Shown here in pieces: positions 7,663 through 33,020 of a DNA stretch of 64,000 bases. Each line of letters opens with the position of its first letter. The stretch's first letter is position 1. The stretch covers positions 1 to 64,000 of the forward strand of contig JANOEP010000046.1 in assembly GCA_031441465.1 (NCBI GenBank). The letters are read 5' to 3'. The notes beneath the pieces were generated by a model. The model was not told the origin of the DNA. It did no database searches and saw only the letters and a program-made list of their open reading frames with translations. Origin of the DNA: a bacterium. GTDB taxonomy: Bacteria > Krumholzibacteriota > Krumholzibacteriia > LZORAL124-64-63. The position numbers were made by a program, and so were the translations under genes.

Positions 7663-7728
7663 GCCTGCGGCAGGGGATCGCCGGCGGGGCTGCGGCCCCG
7701 CCGGCGGTGACGCACCAGGGAGGGCGAC

Positions 7729-10281: not shown

Positions 10282-10824
10282 CTAGGTCGTCCCGACCAGG
10301 TCCTCGACCACGCTGGTGTTCCGGCTGCCGACAGCATACCCGCCGGACCGATCCTTGTCCACCGCCGTCGCGGACCAGGTCGCCGCTTCGGCGGACCGGG
10401 CCTCGCGGCAGGCGATCCCGAACCGAACCTGGTCGATGGGGTGGCGCAGGGTCCAACGCTCATCGACCAAGACCATCTGCAACCCGTTGCGATTCTTCGA
10501 GTTGACCATCAGGGGCGCCGACAGGTTTCCGGAAACGCTGCCGCCGCCTTCACCCACCGTCGCGATGACCATGACGACCAGGTCCTGGGGGTCGTCCACG
10601 CCGAGCCGCTCGAGGACCGACGGCCGGACTTCAAAGCCATAGTCGTCATGGAAGAAGCCAGGATCGGCCACCGGCACCCGGAAGGCCACCCGGTCCAGGG
10701 ACTGGAGCCATTTCATCGGCAGCGGGGGATCCATGTCAACCAGAATCCAGCGCTTCAGTTCGGGCAGCCCCACCAGACCATCGCGGAAGGTGAGGGTCAC
10801 GGCACGATCGTTCTGCATCTTCAT
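10282..10824 (-). CDS. fliW: flagellar assembly factor FliW
   Basis: [25 protein letters not shown] motifs; adjacent to csrA. Confidence 0.9.
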
Positions 10825-18835: not shown

Positions 18836-19654
18836 TTAGGCGGTGCGGCTCAGTTGGTTCACGGCTTTGTCCAGCGTGCGGTCGGCTTCCTGAAGAACCT
18901 TGGCGTCCATCTCGAAGGCGCGCTGGGCGGCAATCATCGCCACCATGGTGTCGATGGGATTGGCGTTGCTCTCCTCGAGCATGCCCTGCGCCAGGCGCAC
19001 CTTGTCGGCGGGCAACGGCTTCGCCGTCACGCCCGCCGGCGCCGCGAGCAGGGAGCCGCCCACGTGGTGCAGCAGGCCGGGGTCGTCGAAGGCGACCACG
19101 GCGAGGCGGCCGACTTCCACGCCGCCCGCCCGCACGCCGCCGTCGGCACTGATGGATAGTTCACCTTCGGGGATCTCCAGGGGCCCGCCGTCGCCCTGCA
19201 CCAGCGCGCCGTCGGGCAGCGACAGCCGCCGCTGCGCGTCGAGCATGAACGCGCCGTTGCGCGTGTAGTATTCCTTGCCGTCGCGGGTGACGCGGAACAG
19301 GCCCTCGTCCTGCAGCGCCACGTCGGTGGCGCGCCCCGTCTCGCGCAGGGTGCCCTGGCTCATGTCCACCGGGGCACGCATGTCCAGGACCAGGTCCCGG
19401 ATCGAACGGCTGCGACTCTCGGGCGCGGCCGGCATCGTGCCGTCCACCGCGGCGGTGGCGCCGTCCGGCTCCACCGCACCGCCACCCGATGCGGTGCCGC
19501 CGCCGCCCGCTTCCTGGCGCATCTGCTCCACGACCTGCGTCAGCACCTGCTTGAAGCCGGTCGCGTTCACGTTGGCCAGGTTGTTCGCCAGCACGTTCGT
19601 GCGCGTCAATTGGATGTTCATGGCGGTCTCGGCCGACCGCAGTCCTTTCAGCAC
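18836..19654 (-). CDS. flgF: rod protein FlgF
   Basis: GTG start; ANNLANVNATGFK, YTRNGAF, LEESNANPIDTMVAMIAAQRAFE. Confidence 0.88.
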   Translation of the reverse strand: MLKGLRSAETAMNIQLTRTNVLANNLANVNATGFKQVLTQVVEQMRQEAGGGGTASGGGAVEPDGATAAVDGTMPAAPESRSRSIRDLVLDMRAPVDMSQGTLRETGRATDVALQDEGLFRVTRDGKEYYTRNGAFMLDAQRRLSLPDGALVQGDGGPLEIPEGELSISADGGVRAGGVEVGRLAVVAFDDPGLLHHVGGSLLAAPAGVTAKPLPADKVRLAQGMLEESNANPIDTMVAMIAAQRAFEMDAKVLQEADRTLDKAVNQLSRTA

Positions 19655-19698
19655 GGCTCCTCCTGAGGGCCCGGGGACACGTTGCCTCCGTGACCGAC

Positions 19699-19714
19699 CG
19701 CAAGGGCCGTGCCA
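19699..19714 (-). promoter_or_regulatory. sigma54 promoter of the flgF operon
   Basis: perfect TGGCACGGCCCTTGCG on minus strand 45 bp upstream of flgF. Confidence 0.85.
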
Positions 19715-19862
19715 CGGTTTCCCGGCGCCCGGGGTCGGGAGATCGCGTTTCCGAGGGGGATCGATGGTCGAGGGATGGTCAGGGGCGGTCAGAAGCCGTC
19801 CGGCGTGGAAAGGCGCGATCCCCGGTGGGGACCGCGCCGCGAACATCGGAGCGTCGGCGAGT

Positions 19863-20249
19863 TCAGCCGACGGCCAGCAGCATGTTGATGTGCTGCTGGA
19901 GGTGCCGCAGGCCGGCCTCGTCGATCTGGGTGAAGAAGACCGCGACCTCGTAGGGAGCGGCGTCCGAGCCCACGGATTCCGGCAGCACGCGCACGACGAT
20001 GCCCTCGCAGTGGGCGGTGCCGGTCGCATCGGGACGCAGTGGATCCACGGGCAGGTCCAGGACCATGTTGAGCTTGGTCATCGGCTCGATGTAGTGGTCG
20101 GAACGGAAGTAGACCCCCGAGGAACTGATGTTCAGCGTCTCCATGCGCGCCGGCACGTGGCTGCCGTCGCCCCGCGGGATGCTGACCTCGAGGTTGAGCT
20201 TCGCGTCAACCCGCAGGCCCTTGCGACGGTTCTGCTGCGCGTCTGTCAT
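19863..20249 (-). CDS. single-domain PilZ (c-di-GMP receptor) protein
   Basis: RRKGLR (RxxxR) and NISSSG (D/NxSxxG) motifs. Confidence 0.85.
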   Translation of the reverse strand: MTDAQQNRRKGLRVDAKLNLEVSIPRGDGSHVPARMETLNISSSGVYFRSDHYIEPMTKLNMVLDLPVDPLRPDATGTAHCEGIVVRVLPESVGSDAAPYEVAVFFTQIDEAGLRHLQQHINMLLAVG

Positions 20250-20390
20250 GAGCGCTCTCCTTAGTTCCGGCTTCCTGGGGAAGCGTCCCCGGCCCGCAGC
20301 TGTCAGGGTGCTGCGTGCCGGGCCCGTTGCCAGTTCCGTACCAGAGCGAGGCCAAGCGAAACCGGCACTCCGAAAAGTGCCGGCCGCTGG

Positions 20391-20480
20391 CTACTTTTTC
20401 TTGTGCCGGTTCTTGCGCAGGCGCTTCTTGCGCTTATGGGTCGCAATCTTCTTGCGCTTGCGCTTCCGTCCGTTCGGCAT
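20391..20480 (-). CDS. small basic ribosomal protein bS22 (AURKAIP1/COX24 family), 29 aa
   Basis: MPNGRKRKRKKIATHKRKKRLRKNRHKKK; AAGGCGG RBS; below ORF-track cutoff. Confidence 0.85.
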   Translation of the reverse strand: MPNGRKRKRKKIATHKRKKRLRKNRHKKK

Positions 20481-20590
20481 GCTACCGCCTTTCCGCTACG
20501 AATGACAGCCGACGCTGCCCATGACAACAGGGTCGGACCGCCGCCGTGGCGGACCAGACCGATCCGAGGTCCCAAACCCGAGGGGCAGGG

Positions 20591-20619
20591 AATATAGCAG
20601 AGATTCCGCAGACAATCAA
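20591..20619 (-). promoter_or_regulatory. sigma70 promoter upstream of bS22
   Basis: TTGATT-N17-TATATT with TGn extended -10. Confidence 0.55.
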
Positions 20620-20634
20620 ATGTCAGCGCCAAGA

Positions 20635-20925
20635 TTATTCGTCTCCGGCCCCACCGTTGAGGCGCGACTTCAACTCGTTGGACGCTTTGAAGTAGGGCAC
20701 CTGCTTCGACGGCACGGCCACGGAATCGCCGGTGCGGGGGTTGCGCGCCTGGCGCGGCCGCCGGCTCTTGACCTTGAAGCTGCCGAAGCCCCGCAATTCG
20801 ACCTTGTCGCCACGGGTCAGGGCGCCACCGATGTTCTCGAGGATCAGGTTGACCACGATCCCCGTGTCCTTCTTGCTGACTCCGGTCCTTTGGGCGATCA
20901 GTTCCACCAGTTCGGCCTTGGTCAT
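20635..20925 (-). CDS. integration host factor beta / HU family DNA-binding protein
   Basis: MTKAELVE, VELRGFGSF, ARNPRTG, VPYFKASNELK. Confidence 0.93.
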   Translation of the reverse strand: MTKAELVELIAQRTGVSKKDTGIVVNLILENIGGALTRGDKVELRGFGSFKVKSRRPRQARNPRTGDSVAVPSKQVPYFKASNELKSRLNGGAGDE

Positions 20926-20966
20926 CGTCTCTCCCCTCGCACTCCCGGCTCCCCTGCGGCAACAAC

Positions 20967-20995
20967 TTGAGAATCAAGCCGTTAAGCAATACCAT
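20967..20995 (+). promoter_or_regulatory. sigma70-like promoter overlapped by IHF consensus site
   Basis: TTGAGA-N17-TACCAT; AATCAAGCCGTTA (20972-20984) matches WATCAANNNNTTR. Confidence 0.5.
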
Positions 20996-21065
20996 GGGGG
21001 GCGCGGGGCTGCCAAGGGAATTTCTCGGACGCCGCGCAGAATGTGCCTCGCTCATTCCATGGGGG

Positions 21066-21213
21066 GAAACGGATGCGGTGATGCCCGCTTGGCCGGGGGC
21101 GCTTGCCGGACACATCCTGTGTCCGGCATTGCTCGACTGCTGTTTCCCTGAGCCCTCCTGGCTCAGGGAAACGGCAGACGCCCCGGCCAAGCGGGCATCA
21201 CCGCATCCGTTTC
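21066..21213. repeat. 148-bp Y-shaped palindrome: 33-bp perfect inverted repeat enclosing 11-bp and 18-bp hairpins
   Basis: GAAACGGATGCGGTGATGCCCGCTTGGCCGGGG (21066-21098) is the exact reverse complement of 21181-21213; inner stems 21104-21128 and 21137-21177. Confidence 0.9.
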
Positions 21214-21576
21214 TCGGTAAGAGCCCCAACATGGGGGCATGGACTTTGGAGCGTGGGCTCGAGTGAGGGCGGGCTTGGCTGGTGGGCATACGTGTGTCCC
21301 GCACTTGCCGCGTGCTACCCGGACCCATGATCTACAACAACGGAGAGCGTAGTGGGTCGAGAAGCGATCGCCTGCAGCGCAGGACACTCGTGCCCGCCTA
21401 CCATCAAGAGGGATGCCTGACGATTGCTTATCGTTGCTTGTAGTTTGTAACTTACATTATTAGAATATATAACATTGATATCATCATGTGTAATGCGAAG
21501 AATAGAGAAGTGGCTGGTTCGTGCAATTCGACCGATTCCCCGACAGACTCGGGGCAGGATGCGCCTCGCCTCTCCC

Positions 21577-22956
21577 CTACGCGGTACCCGCGGACAGGGA
21601 CCGGAACAGGGCGTCATGCGCCGGAGTGAAGCGGCAACCGCGGCGTTGCATGACGATGGTGGCCACTTCGATCGCCCGTTCGACCTCGAACAGGCGGCGG
21701 CCGCGGCCGTCGCCCCAGGTGAAGTTCGCCAGGCAGGTGCGGGGGAAGCCGGCGCCGAAGACATTGCTGGCGAAACCGACCGTGGTGCCCGTGTTGAACG
21801 TCGTCCCGATCGCGCTCTTGGCGTGCTCGGCCATCATGAGGCCCACGAAGCGAGAGCCAGTCGCCACCGGTCCCAGCCCGTAGTTCACCTGGATCTCCCC
21901 GTAGTTGTTCTTCAAGTCGCTGCAGGTCGTGTCGGCGCCCAGATTGACCCAGCCGGCGATGACGGCGTGGCCGAGGAAGCCGGCGTGTTGCTTGTTCGAC
22001 AGGGCCAGGATCTGGGTTTCGGCGATCTCGCCGGCCACCCGGCAGGCGGCCCCGATGGCGGTTTCCCCATAGAGCGCGGCCCCCGCCTTGACGCGTGCGC
22101 CGGCGCCCAGGTACAGCGGCCCTTCGAGGTAGCAATGCGGCAGGACCGTGACGCCGCGGTCCAGGACCACCGGACCGTGCCGGGCGTCGATCACCACGGC
22201 CGGACCCACTTCGACGCCCTCGGCGGCCCAGACCCGCTCCGCCGCGACCAAGGAGACCCCTGGCGTGGCCGTGTAGGGCTGGAATCGGGATCCCACCCGC
22301 CAAACCGGCACCGATGACGAATCCGGCACGACGCCGAACGGCAGCCGCTGGAATTCCCGGCCGGCGGCGACGGTGGCGGCCGTGTCGTCGGCCAAGGCCC
22401 GGGCGAGATCGGGCACGAGGTCCCAGAGGTGCCGCCGGCCGGCATCCGGCCCACCGGTGGCGTCCAAAGGCGGCACCCAGGGATCGGCCGGGCGGGTGGC
22501 GGCCGTCCAGGCGCCGGCAGCGGCCTGAGCCGCTTCCCAGTCCCGCCAATCCGCCAACATGGTCTGAGCCATGGCCGGGTCGACGGAGGCCGCCAGCAGG
22601 CCGTCCTCGTCGCGCTGGGCGAAGGGAGCCGCCCGGTCGAGCATGTCGCGCAGCACCGCCCAATCCGCGCCAAGGCGGGCGTTCAGGAACAGCACCGAAG
22701 CGGACGTCGCCGCGGCGGCGCCCGTCGCCGCCACGCCACAAACCGCCCCCTCCGGCAAGGTGAGCGCCTGCAATGGCTCCAGCAGGGTCCTGGGCAGCAG
22801 GGCAAGCCGGTTTGCCTGGCGGGAACCGCCGCCGATCAGGGAAACCCGCTCACGCAGGTTGAACAGGCCGCAGGATATCTCGTAAACGGGCACGCTCCAA
22901 CCAACCGGCCGAAATCCTTGCAGGGTATGGTCCTCGAACAGGACGATCAGGCGCAT
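21577..22956 (-). CDS. GlmU-like putative sugar nucleotidyltransferase / hexapeptide-repeat acyltransferase
   Basis: PVYEISCGLFNLRER N-terminus; left-handed beta-helix repeats; SNKQHAGFLGHA, WVNLGADTTCSDLKNNYG. Confidence 0.8.
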   Translation of the reverse strand: MRLIVLFEDHTLQGFRPVGWSVPVYEISCGLFNLRERVSLIGGGSRQANRLALLPRTLLEPLQALTLPEGAVCGVAATGAAAATSASVLFLNARLGADWAVLRDMLDRAAPFAQRDEDGLLAASVDPAMAQTMLADWRDWEAAQAAAGAWTAATRPADPWVPPLDATGGPDAGRRHLWDLVPDLARALADDTAATVAAGREFQRLPFGVVPDSSSVPVWRVGSRFQPYTATPGVSLVAAERVWAAEGVEVGPAVVIDARHGPVVLDRGVTVLPHCYLEGPLYLGAGARVKAGAALYGETAIGAACRVAGEIAETQILALSNKQHAGFLGHAVIAGWVNLGADTTCSDLKNNYGEIQVNYGLGPVATGSRFVGLMMAEHAKSAIGTTFNTGTTVGFASNVFGAGFPRTCLANFTWGDGRGRRLFEVERAIEVATIVMQRRGCRFTPAHDALFRSLSAGTA

Positions 22957-23005
22957 CGTGAACTCCCTTTCGCGATCGGCGTCCTGTGAAGCCGGTCGGA
23001 AGCGA

Positions 23006-23320
23006 TTATTCCAGGGTGACGGTCAGGATCCAGGTCCCCCCGCCCGTGGGGAGACCGACCGTGGTCCGGGAGGACACGTCGGCCCTCAGCTCGGCGGCGA
23101 CCGGCATGATCGCCGAAGGCGTGTCCTGCTTCCAGGCGACGTTCAGGCATTGATCTTGCGGCGAGAAGAGCCGGAAGGCCGTCACGGTTCCGCCCACTTC
23201 GCTGCGGACGGTCACTGACGGCAGGACCTCCACCCTGGCGGCGAAAGGGAATTCGCCGGCCATGGCCGCGGTCGCGGCAGACAACAGGAAACAAGGCAGC
23301 AGGATGGGCCAGCGATTCAC
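23006..23320 (-). CDS. small secreted beta-rich protein, divergent from pilins
   Basis: GTG start, signal peptide (WPILLPCFLLSAATAAMA), C-terminal alternating strand WILTVTLE. Confidence 0.5.
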   Translation of the reverse strand: MNRWPILLPCFLLSAATAAMAGEFPFAARVEVLPSVTVRSEVGGTVTAFRLFSPQDQCLNVAWKQDTPSAIMPVAAELRADVSSRTTVGLPTGGGTWILTVTLE

Positions 23321-23423
23321 GAACGGGGCTCCCGGCGCGAGTGGGGTGTTCCCGGTGCGCGGCCCGTCGCCGCTTGCGATCCAGTCTGTCCCAAGCCGCG
23401 GTGAAATGCACTCGAAAAATCTG

Positions 23424-23450
23424 TCAAGCGGCGTCCGGCACGGCCGATGA
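23424..23450 (+). promoter_or_regulatory. sigma28-type promoter of major pilin
   Basis: TCAAG-N14-GCCGATGA about 90 bp upstream of ATG 23542. Confidence 0.7.
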
Positions 23451-23541
23451 CCATCAACGCGAGGCATCCGGAGTACGGCAGCAACCAACGTCGCAACAGT
23501 TTTCCGGGTACGGAGACCACACGTTTCAAGGAGAAGAAACC

Positions 23542-24039
23542 ATGCGGAAACTGACCTTCCTGTCCCTGGCGGCGCTGGTCGTCGCGTTCCCCGTCGGTCA
23601 GGCCCTCGCCCTGGATTCGCCCCAGGACGCGAAGGTCGACGTGTTCATCGCGCTGTCCGTCGTCGAGACGGTCGAGATGGACTTCGGCGCCGTCATCGAC
23701 GCCGACGGCACGATCACCCTGAACACCAACGACGTGATCGCCGCCGACCCGGCCGGCATCCACCAGGGCGGCACCGTGGCCAGCGGCGTCTACACGGTCA
23801 CCGGCCAGCCCAGCCAGGCCATCGACCTGGCGATCACCCCGGCCAACGCGAACGGCCTGTTGCTGGCGAACTTCACGACCGACGTGGGCGGCGGCACCTT
23901 CCCGCTGACGGGTGTCCTGATCAACGGCATCGGCAACCTGGCCGTGGGCCTCGGCGCCGACCTGACCGTCCAGAGCGGCGTGGCTGCCCCGGGCGCCAAC
24001 CAGCCGCTGAACTTCACGATCACGGTCACTTACAACTGA
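23542..24039 (+). CDS. major pilin-like subunit (DUF4402-like)
   Basis: AAGGAG RBS; signal peptide MRKLTFLSLAALVVAFPVGQALA; MDFGAV motif; C-terminal FTITVTYN strand with penultimate Tyr. Confidence 0.75.
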   Translation: MRKLTFLSLAALVVAFPVGQALALDSPQDAKVDVFIALSVVETVEMDFGAVIDADGTITLNTNDVIAADPAGIHQGGTVASGVYTVTGQPSQAIDLAITPANANGLLLANFTTDVGGGTFPLTGVLINGIGNLAVGLGADLTVQSGVAAPGANQPLNFTITVTYN

Positions 24040-24057
24040 CCGATCCCGATCGTCGTC

Positions 24058-24085
24058 AAGGGGAGGCTCACGGGCTTCCCCTTTC
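24058..24085 (+). terminator. intrinsic terminator after major pilin
   Basis: AAGGGGAGGCTC/GGGCTTCCCCTT stem followed by T-tract. Confidence 0.65.
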
Positions 24086-24100
24086 GCTTGCCCGGCGGGG

Positions 24101-24116
24101 TGGCACGCCCCTTGCG
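24101..24116 (+). promoter_or_regulatory. sigma54 promoter of second pilin
   Basis: perfect TGGCACGCCCCTTGCG 43 bp upstream of ATG 24159. Confidence 0.85.
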
Positions 24117-24158
24117 GTTCGGATCACGGTTTCCGGACTTCGGCAAAGGGCTATTCGT

Positions 24159-24644
24159 ATGCTTTGGCTGGTTTCGCAAGAACTTGGTCGACCACCCGGG
24201 CGCGGGTTCCTGCTGCCGGTCCTGGTGGTGATAGCGCTCGCCGCGCCGGCCGGCGGCGCCGAACTGGACATCGTCGAGACCGTCCAGATGGACTTCGGCG
24301 CGGTCCTGGACCAGAACGGGGCGCTGACCCTGGGCATCAACGACAACCTCGTCGCGGACCCCTCCGGCATCCAGGCCGGGGGCGTGATGCTGAGCGGCCG
24401 GTTCCTGATCACCGGAGACCCGTTTGCAGCATTCAGCCTCGACATCAACGGTTCCAGCCTCGACGGTCTGAGCCTCGACAATTTCAACACCAGCTCCGGG
24501 CACCCGCCGGTCCTGAACGCCGTCCTGAACGGCCTCGGGCAGCTCACGGTGCGCTTCGGCGCCGTCCTGACAGTCCAGTCGTCGCGAGCTGAACCCGGCC
24601 TCGACCACTTCCTCGCCTACACGGTCTCCGTCAACTACAACTGA
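24159..24644 (+). CDS. minor pilin-like subunit, paralog of 23542-24039
   Basis: IVETVQMDFGAVLDQNGALTL..VADPSGIQAGG aligns with VVETVEMDFGAVIDADGTITL..AADPAGIHQGG; ends YTVSVNYN. Confidence 0.75.
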   Translation: MLWLVSQELGRPPGRGFLLPVLVVIALAAPAGGAELDIVETVQMDFGAVLDQNGALTLGINDNLVADPSGIQAGGVMLSGRFLITGDPFAAFSLDINGSSLDGLSLDNFNTSSGHPPVLNAVLNGLGQLTVRFGAVLTVQSSRAEPGLDHFLAYTVSVNYN

Positions 24645-24676
24645 TCTCCCCACACGCCCCACCGCCCTCATGATCA

Positions 24677-24692
24677 TGGCACACCCATTGCG
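24677..24692 (+). promoter_or_regulatory. sigma54 promoter of chaperone-usher genes
   Basis: TGGCACACCCATTGCG (GG-N10-GC) 80 bp upstream of ATG 24772. Confidence 0.8.
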
Positions 24693-24771
24693 TTGCTCCC
24701 CTCGCGCGGGTCGCGCACGGCCTTCGGGCCGGGATGCCGGCCCCTGGAATTGATCGTCGGGAGGATGACTT

Positions 24772-25650
24772 ATGGTTTGGTCGCGATGGCGTCGTGCCGT
24801 GATGGCGGCATCCTGGATGTGTTTCGTCCTGGGTGGAATCGTTTTGGACAGCGCCGCCGGCGGCCTGTCGATCGCACCGACTCGGCTCATGTTCGACGGG
24901 CATTCGCGCGTGGCGACCGTCTACCTGAGCAACAAGGGCGACCAGCCCGCGACCTACCGCATCCTGCTCAAGGATAAAAGGATGCTGGAGTCGGGTCAGA
25001 TCGTCGACGCCGAGTCGCCGCTCCCCGGCGAACACCCCGCCGCCGACCTGGTCCGCTTCTCCCCTCGCGAGGTCGTCGTGCCGCCGCACGGCAGCCAGAC
25101 CGTCCGGGTCATGCTGCGCAACCCGAGCGAGGGGCCGCTGACGCGCGGCGAAGCGCGCACCCACCTGGTCTTCCAGTCGGTGCCCGCGGTGCCCACGGTC
25201 GAGGAACTGGCCGCCCGGCAGGACCGCCTCGTCGCCCAGGCGATCATCGAAACGAGCATCCCGGTGATCATCCGCCGCGACAACCCGACCGCCGTGATCG
25301 CCCTCGACGCCGCGCAGCTGGACAGCCTGCCGGACCGCGACGGCATGCCGGTGCTGCAGGTCGTCCTGGAGCGCACCGGCGAACGCTCGGTGTACGGCGA
25401 CCTGTCGGTCGATCTGGAAGCCGACGGCAAGACGACCCGCGTGGGCCTGATGGTGGGGCTCGCCGTCTACACGCCGACGCCGCGCCGCGTGATCCGCCTG
25501 CCGCTGACGCTGGCACAGAAAGACCTGCCCGCGAGCGGGCGGCTGGTCGTGCGCTACGCCGAGACGGAAATCGGGCACGGCGACCTGATGGCCGACACCT
25601 ACCTCGAATTCGTCAAGGAGCCCGACGAGGGGAGCGACGAGGCGCGATGA
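24772..25650 (+). CDS. periplasmic pilus assembly chaperone (PapD-like)
   Basis: signal peptide; LSIAPTRLMF, LSNKG, FSPREVVVPPHGSQTVRV, SIPVIIR, RTGERSVYG. Confidence 0.85.
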   Translation: MVWSRWRRAVMAASWMCFVLGGIVLDSAAGGLSIAPTRLMFDGHSRVATVYLSNKGDQPATYRILLKDKRMLESGQIVDAESPLPGEHPAADLVRFSPREVVVPPHGSQTVRVMLRNPSEGPLTRGEARTHLVFQSVPAVPTVEELAARQDRLVAQAIIETSIPVIIRRDNPTAVIALDAAQLDSLPDRDGMPVLQVVLERTGERSVYGDLSVDLEADGKTTRVGLMVGLAVYTPTPRRVIRLPLTLAQKDLPASGRLVVRYAETEIGHGDLMADTYLEFVKEPDEGSDEAR

Positions 25651-28343
25651 ACCCGCGGGTCCCCCGACGTCCGGCCCGGGTCCGCGCCCTTTGCGGCGCG
25701 GTCCTGTTGTGCCTGTCGGCGTCGCCGGCCGCGGCCCTGGACGACGCCCGCCTGGCGATCATGGAGATCCGTCTCGACGGCGGCGTGCTGTCCCCCGGCA
25801 CGCCCGCCTACCTGGACGACAACGGGAACGTCCTGCTGCCGCTGGGCGCGCTCGGCGACCTGCTCGAGTTCGCGATCGACGTGGACCCGGCCCGCGGTCG
25901 GGCCACGGGCTGGCTGATCGAGGAGTCCCGCACCTTCGCCTTGGACCTCGCCACCGGCGAGGTCGTCAGCGACGGCCAATCCCGGTCGCTGGCCGCGGGC
26001 GAAGCGGTGCGCGGCGACGACGACATCTACGTGGCGCCGGCGCGCCTCGCGGAATGGCTGCCCTGCGACATCGAGGTGCGCAGCGCGCAGCTCGTGGCGC
26101 TGATCACCTCGCGCGAAACGCTGCCGGTGCAGAAGCGGCGCCTGCGCGAGGCGGCGCGCAGCCAGCGGCTCGTGAGCAAGGTCGCCGCCCGCGCCGTGCA
26201 CCCGGTTCAGAAGGCCGAGTACCAGCTGTTCACCTGGCCGCTGCTGGACGCGAACGTCGAGTACCGCGGCCGCGGCGGCGACATGACGCCGGTGTTCTCC
26301 CTGCAGAGCGCCGGCGATCTGGCCCGGCTGGAGACCAGTTTCCTGGTCGCCCACATCGACCGCGAGCGCTTCCTGGGCGTGGTCCGGGCGCGCGCCGGAC
26401 GCAGCGACCTCGACGGCGAATTGCTGGCCCCCCTGCACGCGACGGAGTTCCAGTTCGGCGATCTCTACGCCCCGAGCACGCCCCTGGTGCTGCGCGGCAA
26501 GCTCGGGCGCGGCGCGTCGGTCGGCAACCTCCCGCTGCACCGTTCCGAATCCTTCGACGCCACGAACGTGCCCGGCGAGGCGCCGGTCGGCTGGGAAGTC
26601 GAACTCTACGTCGACGGCGTGCTGTGGGACTTCACGGCCGTGGACGAGGGCGGCCGCTACCTGTTCGAGAACGTGCCGGTGAATTTCGGGCGCACGCTGC
26701 TGCGGACGGTCGCCTACGGGCCCCAGGGACAGACCCGCGAACAGGTGCGCACCGTCACCGTGGGCGAGCGGATGATCGCGCCCGGCGACGTGCAGTACCG
26801 GTTGTTCGGCGTCCAGGACGACCGCTTCCTGATCACGGGCGAGGACCAGCTCGCCGATTCCCCGGGTCGCAGCCGCTGGACCAGCCACGCCGAGGCCGGC
26901 TTCGGCCTGACCAGCAACCTCAGCCTGACCGGCGCCTGGACGCGCTCGCCGCTCGCGGACGCCGACCATGATTATCGCAGCCTCATCGCCGACGCGGTCG
27001 TGCGCGGCGCCGCGGTGCGCGGCCTGGTGGTGGCCGACAACGCGGGCGGGTCCGCGCGCAGCCTGGCGTTCCAGAGCGGGCTGTTCGGGCGCACGCTGCA
27101 GGTCGAGCACACCGCCTTCAGCGACTTCACCAGCGACGCCAACACGCCTCAGCGCCGCCGCACGCGCGACAGCACTGTGCGCCTGGGCGGCGGCCTCCAT
27201 CTGGGAGCGCGCCCCTACTCCTACGACCTGCGCCTGCAGTCCACGGCCTTCGCCGAGCGCGGCATCGCGCGCCAGGACGGCGCGGTGCTGCGCCTAGCCA
27301 CCGGCTGGTCGCGGGCCACCTGGACCGGCAAACTCGACTACCGGCGCAGCGGCGCGCCGGACGACGACGCACGGACCAGCGACACGAGCCGCCTGCTCCA
27401 GGAACACCTGCTGAGCAGCTGGTGGGGGCCGCTGCTGCTGCGCGGCCAGGTCCGCTCGGGCATCACGCCGGACTTCTCCCTGGAGTCGGCCGGCGCCAGC
27501 GCCGGCTGGCAGGCCACGCGTTTCCTGCGTCTGGGCGGGCACGTGTCACGGGATCTCCAGGACCTCGGCACGACCGGCTACGGCGGCTCCCTGACGCTGC
27601 TGCTGGACGGCGCGCAGATCGCCCTGAGCGGGCACGGGGCCTCCGGTCAGGAGACGTTCTTCAGCCTCGGCGTCTCGACGTCCCTGACCAAGGTGCCCGA
27701 AACGATGCGCCTGCACGTGCAGCGCACGCGCCTGACCGGCGGCTACGGGGCCACGGCCCGCGTGTTCCTGGACCGCAACGCCAACGGGCTCTACGACGAC
27801 CGGGATGAACCGCTGCCCGACGTGCGCTTCGCCGGCGGCGGCGCCTTGCGCCAAGCCAGCACCGACCGCCTGGGACTGGCGTACCTGCCGGACTTGCCGG
27901 CCCACGACAACCGCGACATCACGCTGGACGTCGAGTCGCTCCAGGACCCCTACCTGATCCCCGCCCTGCAGGCCGTGCGGGCCGTCGGGCACCCCGGCGC
28001 GCACCTCGCGCTGGAGTTCCCGGTCACCTACTCGGGCGACATCGAGGGCACGGTCTTCGCGCAGACGCCGGCCGGACGCACGACGCTGCGCAACGTCGGG
28101 CTGGAGCTGCTGGATCTGAAGCAGCGGACGATCCAGACGACCGTCAGCGAATTCGACGGGTACTACCTCTTCCAGGGGATCCCGCCGGGATGGTACGAGG
28201 TGCACGTGGTCGAGTCTTCGCTCACCAGGCGAAACCTGCGCCCGACACCGCCGCTGGCCGCCGCGGTGCCGGTCGACGGGGGCGTGGTGGCGGGGAACGA
28301 TTTCGTGCTGAAGTTCGAGACGACGACGACGGTTAATCGCTGA
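25647..28343 (+). CDS. usher-like outer-membrane assembly protein
   Basis: 898 aa with signal peptide; WEVELYVDG..YGPQGQ plug-like segment, amphipathic beta strands, VFLDRNANG and SEFDGYYLFQGIPPGWY C-terminal domains; 4-bp overlap with chaperone. Confidence 0.75.
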   Translation: MNPRVPRRPARVRALCGAVLLCLSASPAAALDDARLAIMEIRLDGGVLSPGTPAYLDDNGNVLLPLGALGDLLEFAIDVDPARGRATGWLIEESRTFALDLATGEVVSDGQSRSLAAGEAVRGDDDIYVAPARLAEWLPCDIEVRSAQLVALITSRETLPVQKRRLREAARSQRLVSKVAARAVHPVQKAEYQLFTWPLLDANVEYRGRGGDMTPVFSLQSAGDLARLETSFLVAHIDRERFLGVVRARAGRSDLDGELLAPLHATEFQFGDLYAPSTPLVLRGKLGRGASVGNLPLHRSESFDATNVPGEAPVGWEVELYVDGVLWDFTAVDEGGRYLFENVPVNFGRTLLRTVAYGPQGQTREQVRTVTVGERMIAPGDVQYRLFGVQDDRFLITGEDQLADSPGRSRWTSHAEAGFGLTSNLSLTGAWTRSPLADADHDYRSLIADAVVRGAAVRGLVVADNAGGSARSLAFQSGLFGRTLQVEHTAFSDFTSDANTPQRRRTRDSTVRLGGGLHLGARPYSYDLRLQSTAFAERGIARQDGAVLRLATGWSRATWTGKLDYRRSGAPDDDARTSDTSRLLQEHLLSSWWGPLLLRGQVRSGITPDFSLESAGASAGWQATRFLRLGGHVSRDLQDLGTTGYGGSLTLLLDGAQIALSGHGASGQETFFSLGVSTSLTKVPETMRLHVQRTRLTGGYGATARVFLDRNANGLYDDRDEPLPDVRFAGGGALRQASTDRLGLAYLPDLPAHDNRDITLDVESLQDPYLIPALQAVRAVGHPGAHLALEFPVTYSGDIEGTVFAQTPAGRTTLRNVGLELLDLKQRTIQTTVSEFDGYYLFQGIPPGWYEVHVVESSLTRRNLRPTPPLAAAVPVDGGVVAGNDFVLKFETTTTVNR

Positions 28344-28445
28344 TGGTAAACTGAGGGATGTTCGAATATCCGGACGATGATCGAATTTCCCTCGAATCTT
28401 CGTCTGTCGAATTTGAGCGTATTGCAATTCAAGGTCACGGTTGGA

Positions 28446-29432
28446 TCATGGCAGCGTCACTCCAGCTCGCTTGGCGACCTCAAGTGCGAGGGTGCGGAAG
28501 TCCTGATAGCAGTCATTGACGGCCTTAGCATGCCCACCGATCGCACCATCTGCAGGTTTGAGCAAGAACATGGGCTTTCGTGCTTCCTGAGCCAGGGGCA
28601 TCAGACTGCGGTAGTGCTTCAAGGTGGACAAGCAGTGAGGATCTCGGTCAGTGGTAACACCTGCCTGGGGAGTCGTCTCTCCGAGCACTGCCTCCCGGTA
28701 GACGTGCGGAATCCGCGCCATCCACTTCTCGTATGCCTTTACCGGTCGATCGAGACGGACTGCGAGCTGCATCACGACGTAACCGAGCGGCTCCATTCGG
28801 CCCACCGGCAGGTCCACTCCTGGCGGTCGCACCTCGAGGCGCTGTCCCCAACCGTTGCGCCACTCGCGCAATCGGGGCCCGAGGTTCTGGAGCCCCTTGA
28901 GCGAGAACAAATCAGGAGCGAGGGGAATGGCCACGTAATCAGCGGCGATTAGGGCTGCGCGATTAATCGCACCAAGATTAGGTCCCACGTCGATCAGGAC
29001 GATGTCTGACTTGCGCTGTTGAGCCGCGCGCGAAAGAATTTCGTGGAATGACCCGATTACTCGAAAGGCCCGGGTTTTTCCCTCGAGGCAGTAAGGCCAC
29101 TGTTGGCTGAGTTCGTCTTCGAATCCAGACAACGCGAGATCCCCAGCCACAAGCCCGATGCCCACGATGTCCTCGACATGCGGCGCGGCAATCCCTCCCT
29201 CGCCTTCTAGAAGCGGGAGTAGAGGCCCAAGGATGGTCCTGCCCGGCATCCTGTTCGGCCAAAGAGATTCGAGGCCATCCTCATCCAAGAACATGGTCGT
29301 GAGATTAGCCTGTGGATCGAGATCCGCCGCGAGCACGCTGAGGCCGAGATCGGCATACATCCAGGCAAGGTGATAGACCAGTGAGGTTTTCCCGACGCCA
29401 CCCTTATTGTTGAAGAAGGCAATGGTCTTCAT
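28446..29432 (-). CDS. orphan ParA/MinD-family ATPase
   Basis: FFNNKGGVGKTS deviant Walker A, ADLDPQANLT, VLIDVGPNLGAINRAAL. Confidence 0.9.
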   Translation of the reverse strand: MKTIAFFNNKGGVGKTSLVYHLAWMYADLGLSVLAADLDPQANLTTMFLDEDGLESLWPNRMPGRTILGPLLPLLEGEGGIAAPHVEDIVGIGLVAGDLALSGFEDELSQQWPYCLEGKTRAFRVIGSFHEILSRAAQQRKSDIVLIDVGPNLGAINRAALIAADYVAIPLAPDLFSLKGLQNLGPRLREWRNGWGQRLEVRPPGVDLPVGRMEPLGYVVMQLAVRLDRPVKAYEKWMARIPHVYREAVLGETTPQAGVTTDRDPHCLSTLKHYRSLMPLAQEARKPMFLLKPADGAIGGHAKAVNDCYQDFRTLALEVAKRAGVTLP

Positions 29433-30637
29433 GGCGCTGCCCTCAACGTGACACCAACATACGACTGGTTGACTTCGAATTCGGGCGGCGGATTACCGTT
29501 TGCCTGCAACTCTCTGCGAGCCGTGGCAATGCCGACACCGAATCGCTGCACGAAGCCCAAGACGCGAAGCGCCTCAGCTAGGCTGGGGTTACGGTAGTCA
29601 CTGACTCCCGGCAGACCGAAATTCTCCATCGTCACGGCACCGAAGGGTCCGCCGGGACTCAAGATTTCGATGCGGTCATCATACCACGTCACACGTACCG
29701 GAGTATTCGTCGCCTCGTAGCTACGGTGCATAATCGCATTGCGCACTATCTGCTGGAGGGCGGGCATCGGGTAGAGGAAAGTGCGCCGCTCCCGATTCGT
29801 GCTAGTTAGGTCCACCGCGGTACGATTGTGCGCGCTGAGTTTTTCATCCGTGCGATGCAGCACCTCCGTCACGGAACCGTCGAGTACCTGCTCGTCCGTG
29901 ACGGGATCGGCCAGTTCGCGGCCTGCGATCCGCAGAAATTGCAAGTAAGCGCCGGGAATAAAGTCGCGAGTTCGATGGCTCAGCACCAAGATACCAAGCC
30001 CGGTGGGCGTGGGTTCGTCAGCGGCAATCACCATCTTGGTCGCTGCAAGGCGTTGCTCGTAGCTGCGCTCGTTGGCGGCGAGAACGTCTGAGGCAAACGC
30101 CGCGGGGAGATACTCGTCCTCGAATCTACGCCGATCCAGATCACCCACGGTCGCCTGGGAAACCGGTCGCACGTCAAAAGACCGATCCCCGTACCTTCTC
30201 TTCTCGGTCAAGATACGCTCGTCCTGCGCCGAGGCGAAGCCGCGACGCGGGCCGATGCGGATGTAGACGCGACCTTTGAATCGAACTGGTGGAGAATCTG
30301 CGGGCCAAACAGTCACGACGGCCATCTCCTGGGATCGCAGTGTGTGCTTCGTGACGGTAAGAGTGGGTGGAGGGACGATATTGCCATCTGTCTTCATGTC
30401 CGCAAGCTTTAGAAGCAACTCGTCGGTTATGGCAAGCCCCGATGGACTTCCGTCGTCACGTGCGCCGATGAAAATGACGCCGGGTCGACGGCGATCAGGC
30501 AAATCGTTGGCGAACGCACAAACGGCCTCGCGAGCCTTAGTCGGGGACTCACCCTTGAATGACTCCTTGCGTTCCGCAGAATCCGATTCCAAGTCGGAGA
30601 GCATTTCCATCAATTCTCGATCGCTGTAGGCGGTCAT
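29429..30637 (-). CDS. Schlafen/AlbA_2 domain plus HATPase_c_4-like domain protein
   Basis: ESDSAERKES, AVCAFAND..GVIFIGARDDG; NAIMHRSY, DDRIEILSPGG, YRNPSLAEAL, VQRFGVGI. Confidence 0.85.
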   Translation of the reverse strand: MTAYSDRELMEMLSDLESDSAERKESFKGESPTKAREAVCAFANDLPDRRRPGVIFIGARDDGSPSGLAITDELLLKLADMKTDGNIVPPPTLTVTKHTLRSQEMAVVTVWPADSPPVRFKGRVYIRIGPRRGFASAQDERILTEKRRYGDRSFDVRPVSQATVGDLDRRRFEDEYLPAAFASDVLAANERSYEQRLAATKMVIAADEPTPTGLGILVLSHRTRDFIPGAYLQFLRIAGRELADPVTDEQVLDGSVTEVLHRTDEKLSAHNRTAVDLTSTNRERRTFLYPMPALQQIVRNAIMHRSYEATNTPVRVTWYDDRIEILSPGGPFGAVTMENFGLPGVSDYRNPSLAEALRVLGFVQRFGVGIATARRELQANGNPPPEFEVNQSYVGVTLRAAP

Positions 30638-30951
30638 TCATCTCTCCCTGTAGGCAAGCGTGGACTGGTGTTCTTGTGAAAGTTCCTGAAATTTCTTCCG
30701 CTCGCCTGAGAAGCCCCGCGAATGGGAAATTCAAATCGGCTCCCTTGAAGACCGAGATCACGCCAATCCACACGATTGTGTGCTTCAGATAGTGAACCCG
30801 ACTGCTCTTGCTGTCCAGGAATTCGACGACTGTGAGGCTGAAGTCGTCTGACCTGTAGAAATCGGAAAGGAGCTAGATCCTTGCGGACATGCCGATTCTC
30901 ACTGGCGGTTTGAACATTATTCCAGTCCTGTGTGGAACCGAACCAGATTTC

Positions 30952-30987
30952 AATAAAACAAGGGCTCACCATACCGGTAAGCCCTTG
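30952..30987 (-). terminator. terminator downstream of tRNA-Ala
   Basis: CAAGGGCTTACC/GGTGAGCCCTTG stem then TTTTATT on minus strand. Confidence 0.7.
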
Positions 30988-31005
30988 AATATTCAATGCT
31001 TTAGG

Positions 31006-31081
<76 letters not shown>

Positions 31082-31093
31082 ACCCGACGGCAC

Positions 31094-31122
31094 AATATGA
31101 AGCCGGGGCCGGATCCTGTCAA
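31094..31122 (-). promoter_or_regulatory. sigma70 promoter of tRNA-Ala
   Basis: TTGACA-N17-CATATT. Confidence 0.7.
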
Positions 31123-31162
31123 ACCCCAAATGGTCCAAACCGCTGCCCGGTAAGCCTGTCCC

Positions 31163-31191
31163 TTGACGGGGGCGGCGTCGCTCCCTATCAT
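31163..31191 (+). promoter_or_regulatory. sigma70 promoter of tRNA-Leu
   Basis: TTGACG-N17-TATCAT. Confidence 0.75.
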
Positions 31192-31201
31192 CCGCCCTCG
31201 T

Positions 31202-31288
31202 GCCGGAGTGGCGGAATTGGTAGACGCGACGGACTCAAAATCCGTTGCCCTTCGGGGCGCGTGGGTTCAAGTCCCACCTCCGGCACCA
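31202..31288 (+). tRNA. tRNA-Leu(CAA)
   Basis: GCCGGAGTGGCGGAATTGGTAGACGC..ACGGA-CTCAAAA-TCCGT, long variable arm, GTTCAAGTCC, CCA end. Confidence 0.97.
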
Positions 31289-31385
31289 TCGTCTTCGAGG
31301 GCGGCCCCCGGCCGCCCTTCTGCATTTCCAGAGACCGCTGTGTCGACCCAGCCCGGCAGCCGAACTGCCACACCCCGGGCAGCGT

Positions 31386-33020
31386 CTACTTCTGCGACAT
31401 GAAGCCATACCGATAATCCCGCGGCGGGTCGAAGGTCTCCTTGATCGTCCGCGGCGTCGTCCAGCGGATCAGGTTCAGGTACGACCCCGCCTTGTCGTTG
31501 GTCCCCGAAGCGCGCGAACCTCCGAAGGGCTGCTGGCCGACGACCGCCCCGGTGGGCTTGTCGTTGATGTAGAAGTTGCCGGCGGTGCCCACCAGTTCCT
31601 GCTTCATCGTCTCGATCACGCCGCGGTCGCGGGCGAAGACCGCCCCGGTCAGGGCGTAGGTCGAGCCCTTGTCGCAGAGGCGCAGGGCCTTGAGCCAGTC
31701 CTTGTCCTGGTAGACGTGGACGGTCAGGACCGGCCCGAAGATCTCCTCGCGCATGGTCACGAAATCGGGGTCCTTGGCCTCGATGACGGTGGGCTCGATG
31801 AACCAGCCCTTGCTGTCGTCGCAGCCGCCGCCGGCGATGATGCGGGCCTGGCCGCGGGCCTTGCGGGCCTGGTCGATGTAGCCCTTGATGCTCTGGAAGG
31901 CGCCTTGGTCGATGACCGCGCCCATGAAGTTCGTGAAGTCGGCGGGGTCGCCCATCCTGATCGTGGCCACTTCGGCGAGCAGGTGGTCGCGCACCTGCGG
32001 CCACAGCGAGGCCGGGACGTAGGCGCGGCTGGCGGCGGAGCACTTCTGGCCCTGGTACTCGAAGGCGCCGCGCACCAGCGCGGTGACCAGCGCCACCGGG
32101 TCGGCCGAGGCATGGGCGAAGACGAAGTCCTTGCCGCCGGTCTCCCCCACGATGCGCGGGTAGCAGGCGTACTTGCGGATGTTGGCGCCGATGGTCCCCC
32201 ACATGTTCTGAAAGACCTCGGTGCTGCCGGTGAAGTGGACGCCGCCGAGGTCCGGGTGCTCGATGACCGGGTTGCCCACCTGGCCGCCGCTGCCGGGGAT
32301 CAGGTTGATGACGCCGTCGGGCAGTCCCGCCTCGCGCAGGATCTCCATGATGTACCAGGCCGAGTAGACGGCGCTCGAAGCCGGCTTCCACAGCACCGTG
32401 TTGCCCATCAGCGCCGGCGCCGTCGGCAGGTTGCCGGCGATGCTGGTGAAGTTGAACGGGGTCACGGCGAAAACGAAACCGTCCAGGGGCCGCTGCTCGA
32501 GCATGTTCCACATGCCGGGTCCGGATTCGGGCTGCTCGCTCATGATGTCGTGGGCGAAGGCGGGGTTGAAGCGCCAGAAATCGATCAGCTCGCAGGCGGA
32601 ATCGATCTCGGCCTGGTAGGCGGTCTTGCTCTGGCCGAGCATGGTCGCGGCGTTCAGGGTGCTGCGGCGGCGCCCGGCCAGCAGTTCGGCGGCCTTCAGG
32701 AAGACCGCGGCGCGCGCCTCCCAGGACAGCGCGGCCCAGTCCTTCTTGGCCTTACGCGCCGCCGTGGCGGCGGCCTGAACGTGCTTCGCGCCCGCCTTGT
32801 GGTAGACGCCCAGCAGGTGACGGTGGTCGTGGGGCATGCGGCACTCCGCGAGGTCGCCCGTGGCGACGTCCTTGCCGCCGATGACCAGCGGGATCTCGAT
32901 GCGGGCGCCGGCCAGCTCCTTGAGCTTCGCCTTCAGCGCGGCCTTCTCGGGCGATCCGGGCAGGTAGCTCAGGATGGGTTCGTTCATCGGCAGCGGCGGG
33001 ATGGGCAGCATCTGGGACAT
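31386..33020 (-). CDS. pruA: 1-pyrroline-5-carboxylate dehydrogenase
   Basis: NEPILSY, PFNFTSI, GETGGKDF, FEYQGQKCSAASR, GQQPFGGSRASGTNDKAG. Confidence 0.95.
   Translation of the reverse strand: MSQMLPIPPLPMNEPILSYLPGSPEKAALKAKLKELAGARIEIPLVIGGKDVATGDLAECRMPHDHRHLLGVYHKAGAKHVQAAATAARKAKKDWAALSWEARAAVFLKAAELLAGRRRSTLNAATMLGQSKTAYQAEIDSACELIDFWRFNPAFAHDIMSEQPESGPGMWNMLEQRPLDGFVFAVTPFNFTSIAGNLPTAPALMGNTVLWKPASSAVYSAWYIMEILREAGLPDGVINLIPGSGGQVGNPVIEHPDLGGVHFTGSTEVFQNMWGTIGANIRKYACYPRIVGETGGKDFVFAHASADPVALVTALVRGAFEYQGQKCSAASRAYVPASLWPQVRDHLLAEVATIRMGDPADFTNFMGAVIDQGAFQSIKGYIDQARKARGQARIIAGGGCDDSKGWFIEPTVIEAKDPDFVTMREEIFGPVLTVHVYQDKDWLKALRLCDKGSTYALTGAVFARDRGVIETMKQELVGTAGNFYINDKPTGAVVGQQPFGGSRASGTNDKAGSYLNLIRWTTPRTIKETFDPPRDYRYGFMSQK

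Follow-up and report, generated by a model that had tools for sequence, protein, structure and literature searches.

A DUF4402-type chaperone-usher pilus locus with sigma-28- and sigma-54-type promoters at the edge of a flagellar gene supercluster

Introduction

In the textbook view, fimbriae and flagella are antagonists: a cell either swims or sticks. Can a chaperone-usher pilus nevertheless be part of the flagellated cell? The question is raised by a five-gene pilus locus located in the first 64 kb of contig C46 (JANOEP010000046.1, positions 1 to 64,000; hereinafter the window) of a draft genome (3.49 Mb, 69.6% G+C) from an uncultured bacterium of the Krumholzibacteriota/Latescibacterota type. 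The locus consists of a small divergent gene, two pilin genes denoted pilA and pilB, and the genes for a periplasmic chaperone and an outer-membrane usher, and it borders a supercluster of flagellar genes that extends over about 50 kb. The original prediction, based on the letters of the window and a list of its open reading frames, was that this pilus copies the regulatory logic of the flagellum, with the assembly machinery expressed from sigma-54 promoters and the bulk pilin from a sigma-28 (FliA) promoter.

The follow-up analysis described here suggests, with a probability of about 0.6 for the model as a whole, that pilA is a FliA-driven unit, that pilB and the chaperone-usher pair are expressed from sigma-54 promoters, and that the fibre is made on flagellated cells. 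The sigma-28 promoter of the major pilin gene, combined with a conserved terminator, represents a new and well-supported link to the flagellum, whereas the identity of the activator acting on the sigma-54 promoters is a separate question that is addressed below. Throughout, G000 denotes the source genome and g1 its genus, g10, g12, g13 and g14 are other lineages, and L-numbers denote individual loci; orthologous pilus loci are referred to as type 1 and related DUF4402 clusters with a different promoter layout as type 2.

A chaperone-usher system with DUF4402-type subunits

The pilA gene (23542-24039, plus strand; the ATG is at 23542, not 23543) encodes the presumed major pilin, a protein of 165 amino acids (aa) that aligns with the full PF14352 (DUF4402) profile at 22.9 bits, slightly below the gathering cut-off of 25.2. 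The product of pilB (24159-24644, plus strand; 161 aa, with an alternative start at 24225) is 43-47% identical to PilA and scores above the same cut-off (25.8 bits). PilA itself is 90% identical within the genus and 57-79% identical in other genera. The next gene (24772-25650, plus strand) encodes a PapD-like periplasmic chaperone of 292 aa that matches PF00345 (PapD_N) over residues 31-168 with 30.2 bits (cut-off 23); its stop codon overlaps by 4 nt the start of the usher gene (25647-28343, plus strand; 898 aa). On the other side of pilA, the small divergent gene (23006-23320, minus strand) encodes a secreted, pilin-like protein of 104 aa that is a candidate third subunit. Its open reading frame is intact and includes a signal peptide in 10 of the 10 loci examined, and the N-terminal part of the protein contains the motif F.F..(R/K)V.V.P..(S/T)V, while its C-terminal strand resembles that of pilins.

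The usher is identified by fold. The only Pfam domains found in this protein are SdrD_B and CarboxypepD_reg (residues 799-857), there is no match to PF00577 at E-values up to 0.01, and its 37 database relatives, where named, are annotated as 'carboxypeptidase-like regulatory domain protein'. In contrast, when an AlphaFold2 model built with 25 aligned relatives (predicted local distance difference test score, pLDDT, 83.8) was compared with the PDB using Foldseek, the 15 best matches were all FimD or PapC (E-values from 3.6e-28 to 3.7e-15), and the alignments to full-length FimD and PapC chains span approximately 740-940 columns, in agreement with the usher architecture of an N-terminal domain, a large beta-barrel and C-terminal Ig-like domains. 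Pilus subunits of this kind are expected to have an incomplete Ig-like fold with an N-terminal donor strand; the model of PilA (pLDDT 80.5, with residues 1-26 under 50) yields weak matches, none with an E-value below 0.001. Chaperone-usher pilins head the list (E-values of 1e-3 to 0.1), the best being the fimbrial protein BPSL1626, EcpA and FimG (1e-3 to 0.04).

Sequence-based searches of the PDB returned no pilus relative for the pilin profile, no relative for the chaperone and, for the usher profile, the C-terminal SdrD-like domain alone, again with no pilus relative. None of the five pilus proteins, the usher and the small divergent protein included, matches an NCBIfam model; the latter protein also lacks a Pfam match, and SCPU (PF05229) is not detected in either pilin or in the small divergent protein at E-values up to 0.01. 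Relatives of the usher number more than 626 and are spread across many phyla, and the literature search found no paper on DUF4402. Taken together, the PapD_N match, the DUF4402 pilins and the FimD/PapC fold of the usher bear out the proposal that the locus encodes a DUF4402-type chaperone-usher system, which is predicted to assemble a fibre. The structure modelling that had been proposed as a check thus gave a clear answer for the usher and weak pilin matches for PilA.

A sigma-28-type promoter in front of pilA

A sigma-28 (FliA)-type promoter, TCAAG-N14-GCCGATGA, preceded by an A-tract, is located at 23424-23450 (plus strand) and ends 91 nt before the ATG of pilA. The box has the form and placement by which members of the FliA regulon are recognized, namely TAAA(G)-N14/15-GCCGATAA at a suitable distance before a gene. 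A looser sigma-28 pattern has 18 matches in the genome, 15 of them intergenic, and the sigma-28 sites of this genome precede cheA, fliC, flgM and genes for a methyl-accepting chemotaxis protein and for GGDEF, HDOD and CheY-like proteins. The genome's own consensus is TCAAG-N14-GCCGATGA, and the pilA box is an exact copy of it, as are the boxes before cheA and the GGDEF gene. With a position weight matrix (PWM) trained on six motility sites, pilA excluded, the pilA site scores 22.3 of a maximum of 22.5, at tied ranks 4-12. Within the window, the sigma-28 pattern with up to two mismatches is found four times against 1.66 expected, which is not above chance, so that only the exact match is informative there.

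The pilin promoter had been described as similar to that of fliC. Its position and its agreement with the consensus are as proposed, whereas the likeness to fliC is approximate: the fliC promoter (6659-6686, plus strand; TCAAG-N15-CCCGATAT), which has equivalents before fliC in g10, g12, g13 and g14, has a spacer of 15 rather than 14 nt, and the boxes of cheA and of the GGDEF gene resemble that of pilA more closely than the fliC box does. The pilA box is conserved as T(C/A)AAG-N14/15-(G/A)(C/T)CGA(T/A)(G/A/T)(A/C) in g1 (six genomes), g10, g12, g13, g14, L080, L082 and L087, and in all of these except L087 it is found together with the upstream A-tract 85-100 nt before pilA. For comparison, the background frequency of the relaxed motif in G000 is 0.00084 per 150 nt. 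The -10 variants of the pilA box, GTCGAAAA and GTCGATTA, mirror the variants of the fliC -10 element in the same genomes. It is very likely that this box serves as a promoter.

The second feature that sets pilA apart is an intrinsic terminator-like structure at 24059-24090 (plus strand), immediately after the gene. ViennaRNA predicts a G+C-rich hairpin of 10 bp followed by a U-run, and this arrangement is retained through sequence changes in 10 of 10 orthologous loci; the terminator of its own that had been attributed to the pilin gene is therefore recovered, even though a simple terminator scan does not call it.

The leader between the promoter and the start codon (23451-23541, plus strand) has a stem that is conserved, as well as two GGA motifs, of which one falls in the Shine-Dalgarno region; in g12 and g14, the GGA motifs lie in hairpin loops. 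The leader resembles the two-site CsrA arrangement of the fliC leaders in the same genomes and accordingly might bind CsrA. The fliC leader itself (6690-6828; also in L153, L154 and L155) contains a conserved hairpin, UCAGGCAAGGACGUCUGA, that presents a GGA, and a further GGA in the Shine-Dalgarno region. A hairpin GGA combined with a Shine-Dalgarno GGA, along with csrA and fliW, is the known layout of the flagellin partner switch. Given this layout and the nearby csrA (9968-10213) and fliW (10282-10824), a FliW-CsrA-flagellin partner switch is likely to operate in this phylum.

Apart from the pilus locus, a possible FliA-type site, TCAAG-N14-ACCGATAA, is found at 57293-57319 (minus strand), 143 nt before a gene for an 826-aa protein with a weak AAA+ match (54696-57176, minus strand). 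The predicted FliA regulon of G000 also includes a 2047-aa FG-GAP/ASPIC protein with a C-terminal FlgD_ig domain (C16:181262-187535), a 317-aa secreted repeat protein (C37:17702-18747) and several small proteins (C25:17740-18373 and 31526-32145). FliA may thus control several surface proteins in this organism. A second FliA-like sigma factor was considered as the reader of the TCAAG boxes and was rejected: the next-best candidate contains region 1.2 and looks like a group 2/3 sigma factor.

Sigma-54-type promoters of pilB and the chaperone-usher pair

Two -24/-12 boxes of the sigma-54 type divide the remainder of the locus. One, TGGCACGCCCCTTGC (24101-24115, plus strand), lies between pilA and pilB, and the other, TGGCACACCCATTGC (24677-24691, plus strand), between pilB and the chaperone gene. 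Flagellar counterparts in the window are the box of the flgF operon, TGGCACGGCCCTTGC (19700-19714, minus strand), which is retained within the genus as well as in g13 and g14, and AGGCACGACCCTTGC (approximately 2048-2062, minus strand). The strict pattern TGGCAC-N5-TTGC, in which the GG and GC elements are spaced 10 nt apart, occurs three times in the window against 0.16 expected, a number that was reached in none of 100 shuffles. Its 13 occurrences in the whole genome are all intergenic, each followed at a distance of 45-143 nt by a gene read in the same direction; flgF and fliP are among these genes. When a sigma-54 PWM was built from 14 other sites, leaving out the two of the pilus locus, the pilB box (24.1 bits) ranks 4 and the chaperone box (20.1 bits) ranks 15 among all positions of the genome, after which the scores fall; sigma-54 boxes likewise precede flgF, fliP and the flgB-side operon. 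In the proposed genome-wide scan, all three boxes of the pilus locus thus rank near the top of the sites for their respective sigma factors, sigma-28 and sigma-54.

The boxes are also maintained in evolution. Among the loci with both pilins, 9 of 11 have the pilB box (L053 lacks it, and L046 has a degenerate form), and the chaperone box is found in all 11 loci with a pilB-chaperone spacer; in the paralogous locus L054/L111, GGGCACAGCGGTTGC is the chaperone-side sigma-54 box. The spacer sequence around the boxes is not conserved in orthologous loci. Loss of the boxes from these loci would have counted against the original prediction; instead, the boxes are kept in at least six genus-level lineages while their flanks diverge. 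In all probability, the pilus sigma-54 boxes function as promoters.

Evidence of this kind also bears on an alternative in which the motifs, being coincidental or relict, have no promoter function and transcription of the cluster begins at housekeeping promoters that escaped recognition. A simple scan called no sigma-70-type site in the locus, but the promoter types of this bacterial group fall outside its scope. Against the alternative, the sites are rare genome-wide and correctly placed, they are conserved across lineages where flanking sequence is not, and they show a strong strand bias: in a set of 72 related loci, 40 sigma-54 boxes are on the coding strand upstream of the usher gene and four on the other strand. 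The chance or relic explanation is accordingly extremely improbable.

Linkage to the flagellar genes and the history of the two promoter classes

Flagellar genes fill positions 47-20249 of the window. This block includes flgB, the gene for an FlrC-like sigma-54 activator (2201-3640) with that for its kinase, flgM (6061-6429; PF04316 match), fliC-fliD-fliS, the csrA and fliW genes, and flgL, flgK, flgN, flgJ, flgI, flgH, flgA, flgG and flgF, followed by a PilZ gene; a gene for HU and an alternative glmU-type gene (TIGR03991, 312.9 bits) separate the PilZ gene from the pilus locus. A second contig, C31, carries flgC-fliE-fliFGHIJ-fliK-flgE-fliLMN-fliPQR-flhBA-flhF-fliA and the gene of a FleQ-like activator, and continues from the flgB end of C46. 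With the contigs joined at this end, approximately 39 kb separate the pilus locus from fliP, and the pilus locus comes to lie at the margin of a single flagellar supercluster.

This arrangement is not peculiar to one genome. Strong usher matches were detected in 11 of 41 related genomes, namely 6 of 7 of the genus (G000 and five of the six others searched) and members of five other genera. The gene order flgF-PilZ-HU-glmU-like-pilus is kept in seven loci, and the distance between the usher gene and fliP is 39-42 kb in G001, G004, G017, G018 and G019, which represent four genera, as well as in G000 by contig joining. FliP is encoded in all 11 genomes with a strong usher match. In G004, the usher orthologue (L055, C2:499743-502420) matches in four consecutive pieces in different frames, and is either a frameshifted gene or an assembly error.

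In the 72 related loci, the sigma-54 boxes are concentrated in front of the chaperone gene and of a pilin gene, and they are found in Krumholzibacteriota-type, Gemmatimonadales and a few other loci, with none in Proteobacteria. Type-2 clusters, including a paralogue in G015, have sigma-54 boxes before the first pilin gene and before the chaperone gene, and when flgF, flgG, fliC, PilZ and HU were used as tblastn queries, the approximately 6 kb around these clusters gave no match. In the Thermoanaerobaculia loci L117, L121, L126 and L134, an activator gene lies beside the usher gene. Because sigma-54 boxes occur in clusters around which this search found no flagellar gene and relatives in Thermoanaerobaculia are accompanied by activator genes, sigma-54 looks inherited with the pilus family rather than copied from the flagellum. 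Sigma-54 control thus appears to be ancestral to the pilus family in this bacterial group, with the sigma-28 promoter as an added feature. The layout with one sigma-28 and two sigma-54 boxes is also seen in the more distant locus L087 (Krumholzibacteriota-labelled, approximately 3450-8560; usher 32% identical), with TAAAG-N14-TCCGATTA before the first pilin gene, TGGCATATCATTTGC before the second and TGGCACACCAATTGC before the chaperone gene.

Which activator acts on the sigma-54 promoters?

The regulators that a sigma-54/sigma-28 cascade would require are all encoded, as had been expected for this genome: a single rpoN, a single fliA above the TIGR02479 cut-off (273.2 versus 189.6 bits), flgM, an FlrBC-like pair, CsrA, FliW and the FleQ-like activator beside fliA. 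A weaker sigma-54-like box, AAGGCACGGTTCCTGCA (13.3 bits; C31:19695), is located 75 nt before fliA and fits a sigma-54-dependent fliA, as in Vibrio-type hierarchies.

If pilB and the chaperone-usher pair start from the sigma-54 promoters, their expression would need RpoN and an ATP-dependent activator. One answer is that the flagellar hierarchy extends to the pilus in full, with the FleQ-like and/or the FlrC-like activator driving the chaperone-usher pair and the minor pilin, and FliA the major pilin, so that the machinery is made before the bulk subunit. There is no activator gene within 6 kb of type-1 pilus loci, and the nearest ones are the two flagellar activators, FlrC-like and FleQ-like. 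Furthermore, five of the approximately 15 strongest sigma-54 sites of the genome fall in the flagellar-pilus supercluster, two genomes of the genus have pilB and flgF boxes that are identical along 20 nt, the chaperone and fliP boxes differ at one of 19 positions, and the place of the pilus locus beside the flagellar genes is kept in four genera.

The similarity between the boxes was an element of the original prediction. Its factual basis, a shared -24/-12 consensus, is sound, but the core promoter binds sigma-54 rather than the activator, and therefore the resemblance is uninformative about which activator is involved. The genome encodes at least 16 sigma-54 activators. A candidate for the binding site of a flagellar activator is CTGACCGCC, which precedes the flgF box by 75 nt and the fliP box by 74 nt (19790-19830, minus strand, in the window; C31, approximately 13010-13020). 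The flgF copy is part of three direct CTGACC-like repeats with a spacing of 10 bp, which are conserved within the genus. This element was not found at the matching offset or within 220 nt of either pilus sigma-54 promoter (the degenerate pattern CTGACC[GA]CC has a genome-wide rate of 0.094 per kb); the test is weak because the element is conserved within the genus only.

Other approaches to the activator gave similar results. A comparison of k-mers among five sigma-54 promoter regions gave CCTGACCG(T/C)CC in those of flgF, fliP, pilB and the chaperone gene; it was rejected as an activator site because in the pilus regions it falls within the codons for the homologous LTVQS motif of both pilins and is lost where the orthologues read LEVQS. 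Synonymous-site conservation in pilA (12 sequences) and pilB (eight sequences) reveals no island at the 3' ends, that is, no constraint where an upstream site would sit. The comparison of the fliP and chaperone boxes across genera shows a general TTGCG(T/A)TG tendency and no further co-variation. The activators adjacent to the Thermoanaerobaculia pilus loci have best matches in G000 of 40-43% identity that are equal among several paralogues; that of L121 matches a split gene on C39 at 62%. These matches do not single out an orthologue.

Further points against an extension of the full flagellar hierarchy to the pilus are the sigma-54 boxes of type-2 clusters and of L087, where no flagellar gene was found nearby, the dedicated activators of the Thermoanaerobaculia relatives, and a sigma-54-like box far upstream of pilA (see below) that opposes strict ordering. 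Control of the pilus sigma-54 promoters by flagellar activators is hence doubtful, and the complete hierarchy, which combines such control with FliA-dependent pilA, is rather unlikely. Thus, of the proposal that the pilus copies flagellar logic, the sigma-28 promoter of pilA and the conserved linkage to the supercluster stand; the sigma-54 part is weakened by the boxes of type-2 clusters, the abundance of activators, and the lack of CTGACCGCC.

An even more specific version would make the pilus a true fourth branch of the flagellar programme. In this scheme, the FleQ-like activator would act on the chaperone-usher pair along with the fliP-type genes, the FlrBC-like pair would act on an initiating minor pilin along with the flgF-type genes, FliA would yield the bulk pilin after hook completion, and the FliW-CsrA switch would gate pilin translation via the two GGA sites of the leader. 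That all four connections hold jointly is improbable. If they did, an adhesive fibre would be built in step with the flagellum, the reverse of the antagonism between motility and adhesion, by a design principle conserved in a little-known phylum.

The proposed two-sigma-factor model and the case against it

The favoured interpretation, FliA-driven pilA together with sigma-54-dependent pilB and chaperone-usher genes, does not specify the activator. RpoN and an ATP-dependent activator would supply the chaperone, the usher and the second pilin. Given its FliA-type promoter and its own terminator, the strong, terminator-bounded, monocistronic pilA unit would deliver the bulk pilin when FliA is freed from FlgM, and pilin output would rise on cells with a completed hook-basal body. 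The fibre would be made on flagellated cells rather than instead of the flagellum, in response to two inputs, the activator signal and FliA.

Several observations weigh against this model. The designation of PilA as the major pilin is based solely on the terminator and promoter of its gene. Neither pilus sigma-54 promoter yielded an upstream activator site by k-mers, by CTGACCGCC or by synonymous sites. FliP is also encoded in 22 of 24 other genomes of the family, and since it is nearly universal there, the co-occurrence of pilus and flagellum carries little weight. L087 has no flagellar gene within 6 kb by tblastn, and linkage is therefore not required for the promoter layout. Finally, a distal sigma-54-like box, AGGCATTGATCTTGC (23145-23159, plus strand), is located 383 nt before the ATG of pilA, antisense within the small divergent gene. 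If active, it would give pilA tandem promoters, so that pilin could be made before the release of FliA, and it may add a FliA-independent route to pilin.

The distal box is part of a 17-nt island, AGGCA(C/T)(T/C)GATCTTGCG, that shows near-perfect identity in four genus-level lineages amid poorly conserved sequence and imposes three consecutive rare codons on the small gene (CAA accounts for 6.3% of Gln codons and GAT for 12.5% of Asp codons). These properties fit a putative sigma-54 box aimed at pilA. The box is absent from g12, g14 and L080, and in G000 it reads AGGCAT and scores less than 11 bits on the sigma-54 PWM. For the predicted order of events, machinery first and pilin after export of FlgM, the consequences are mixed: the sigma-28 promoter of pilA agrees with it, and the distal box weakens its strictness.

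The same island lends itself to another explanation, in which a separate, non-flagellar activator drives all three sigma-54 boxes, the sigma-28 promoter provides a minor or conditional boost, and the pili are not tied to flagellated cells. Sigma-54 control of the first pilin is indeed the commoner layout in related type-2 loci, the island before pilA is kept in four lineages against codon preference, and dedicated activators accompany the related Thermoanaerobaculia clusters. However, the sigma-28 box is an exact consensus conserved in at least seven lineages compared with four for the distal box, the latter is weak in G000, and the terminator isolates pilA as a unit of its own. Mainly non-flagellar control of the pilus is hence quite improbable, and the model with FliA-dependent pilA is preferred.

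Comparison with known systems

The arrangement is a new regulatory combination of known kinds of parts that is kept across several genera. The classical Fim and Pap pili of Escherichia coli share with it a PapD-like chaperone, an usher that the present one matches in fold over the full length of FimD/PapC, small beta-rich subunits (the best fold matches of PilA are of the Fim/Ecp type) and a stem-loop after the major-subunit gene. The locus described here differs in that its usher is missed by PF00577 and its parts by NCBIfam, its subunits are of the DUF4402 type, and its promoters are of the sigma-28 and sigma-54 types. Fim and Pap are expressed from phase-variable sigma-70 promoters, and such fimbrial operons typically repress motility (PapX, MrpJ). 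The archaic sigma-class pili (Csu of Acinetobacter baumannii and CupE of Pseudomonas aeruginosa) similarly combine small paralogous subunits with a chaperone and an usher, and occur widely in environmental bacteria; in contrast to these, the present locus has no SCPU match, and sequence searches of the PDB gave no relative for its pilins, chaperone and usher barrel. For Csu and CupE, control is exerted by two-component systems that act on ordinary promoters.

On the regulatory side, the closest parallel is the four-tier hierarchy of polar flagella in Vibrio and Pseudomonas, which involves FlrA/FleQ, FlrBC/FleSR with sigma-54, and FliA/FlgM (for the general scheme, see PMC7064773 and PMC11187230). 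The same regulator set is encoded here, and the pilus locus possesses both promoter classes, with the parts preceded by sigma-54 boxes and the bulk subunit by a sigma-28 box, but the prospective target, a fibre with its own export route, is not part of the flagellum, and the shared upstream element CTGACCGCC was not found at the locus.

Non-flagellar genes with sigma-28 promoters are themselves not without precedent: FliA regulons have members outside the flagellum, among them the Feds of Campylobacter jejuni. Feds (flagellar co-expressed determinants) are single secreted or colonisation proteins that are co-expressed with late flagellar genes, whereas the present locus encodes a multi-gene pilus assembly system divided between two sigma factors. 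The Thermoanaerobaculia DUF4402 clusters belong to the same pilus family but have an activator gene beside the usher gene, with none adjacent here; conversely, the sigma-28 promoter of the major pilin gene and the location in a flagellar supercluster distinguish the present locus from them. In the swarmer pole of Caulobacter, a flagellum and Tad pili are produced in one programme by a single motile cell, with late activation of the pilin gene. The likeness is limited to the presence of pilus and flagellum on the same motile cell; the pilus type and the regulators differ, the Tad pilus being of type IVc and controlled by CtrA and the cell cycle rather than by flagellar sigma factors. In the literature searched, by titles and abstract openings, no description of a chaperone-usher pilus under sigma-28 or sigma-54 control was found; a review-type analysis (PMC3162934) ties sigma-54 in a general way to 'flagella and/or pili', with no mention of fimbriae or ushers.

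If the boxes are used, the fibre would belong to the motile cell and could help it, for example, to scan surfaces, to tether itself or to attach when a run ends. The locus would then provide the first regulatory context for a large, unstudied family of DUF4402 pili whose usher is missed by annotation, and would illustrate a route by which a sigma-54-controlled pilus can enter the flagellar regulon, the gain of a single sigma-28 promoter.

Other features of the window

Between the usher gene and the tRNA genes at 31009-31081 (minus strand) and 31202-31285 (plus strand), there are two genes, for a ParA-like ATPase (28446-29432, minus strand) and for a protein with Schlafen/AlbA_2 and HATPase_c_4 domains (29429-30637, minus strand), both with a G+C content at third codon positions below that of the surroundings. 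The region 28446-31285 looks like a small element inserted at a tRNA site. An Rfam scan of 19000-31500 returned, above threshold, the two tRNAs only. The HU and glmU-like genes are separated by some 650 nt (20926-21576) that contain no convincing gene and no Rfam family at threshold; the open reading frames 20303-21328 and 21315-21764 were rejected as genes, having no family match and an Arg/Pro/Ala-rich composition typical of off-frame translation.

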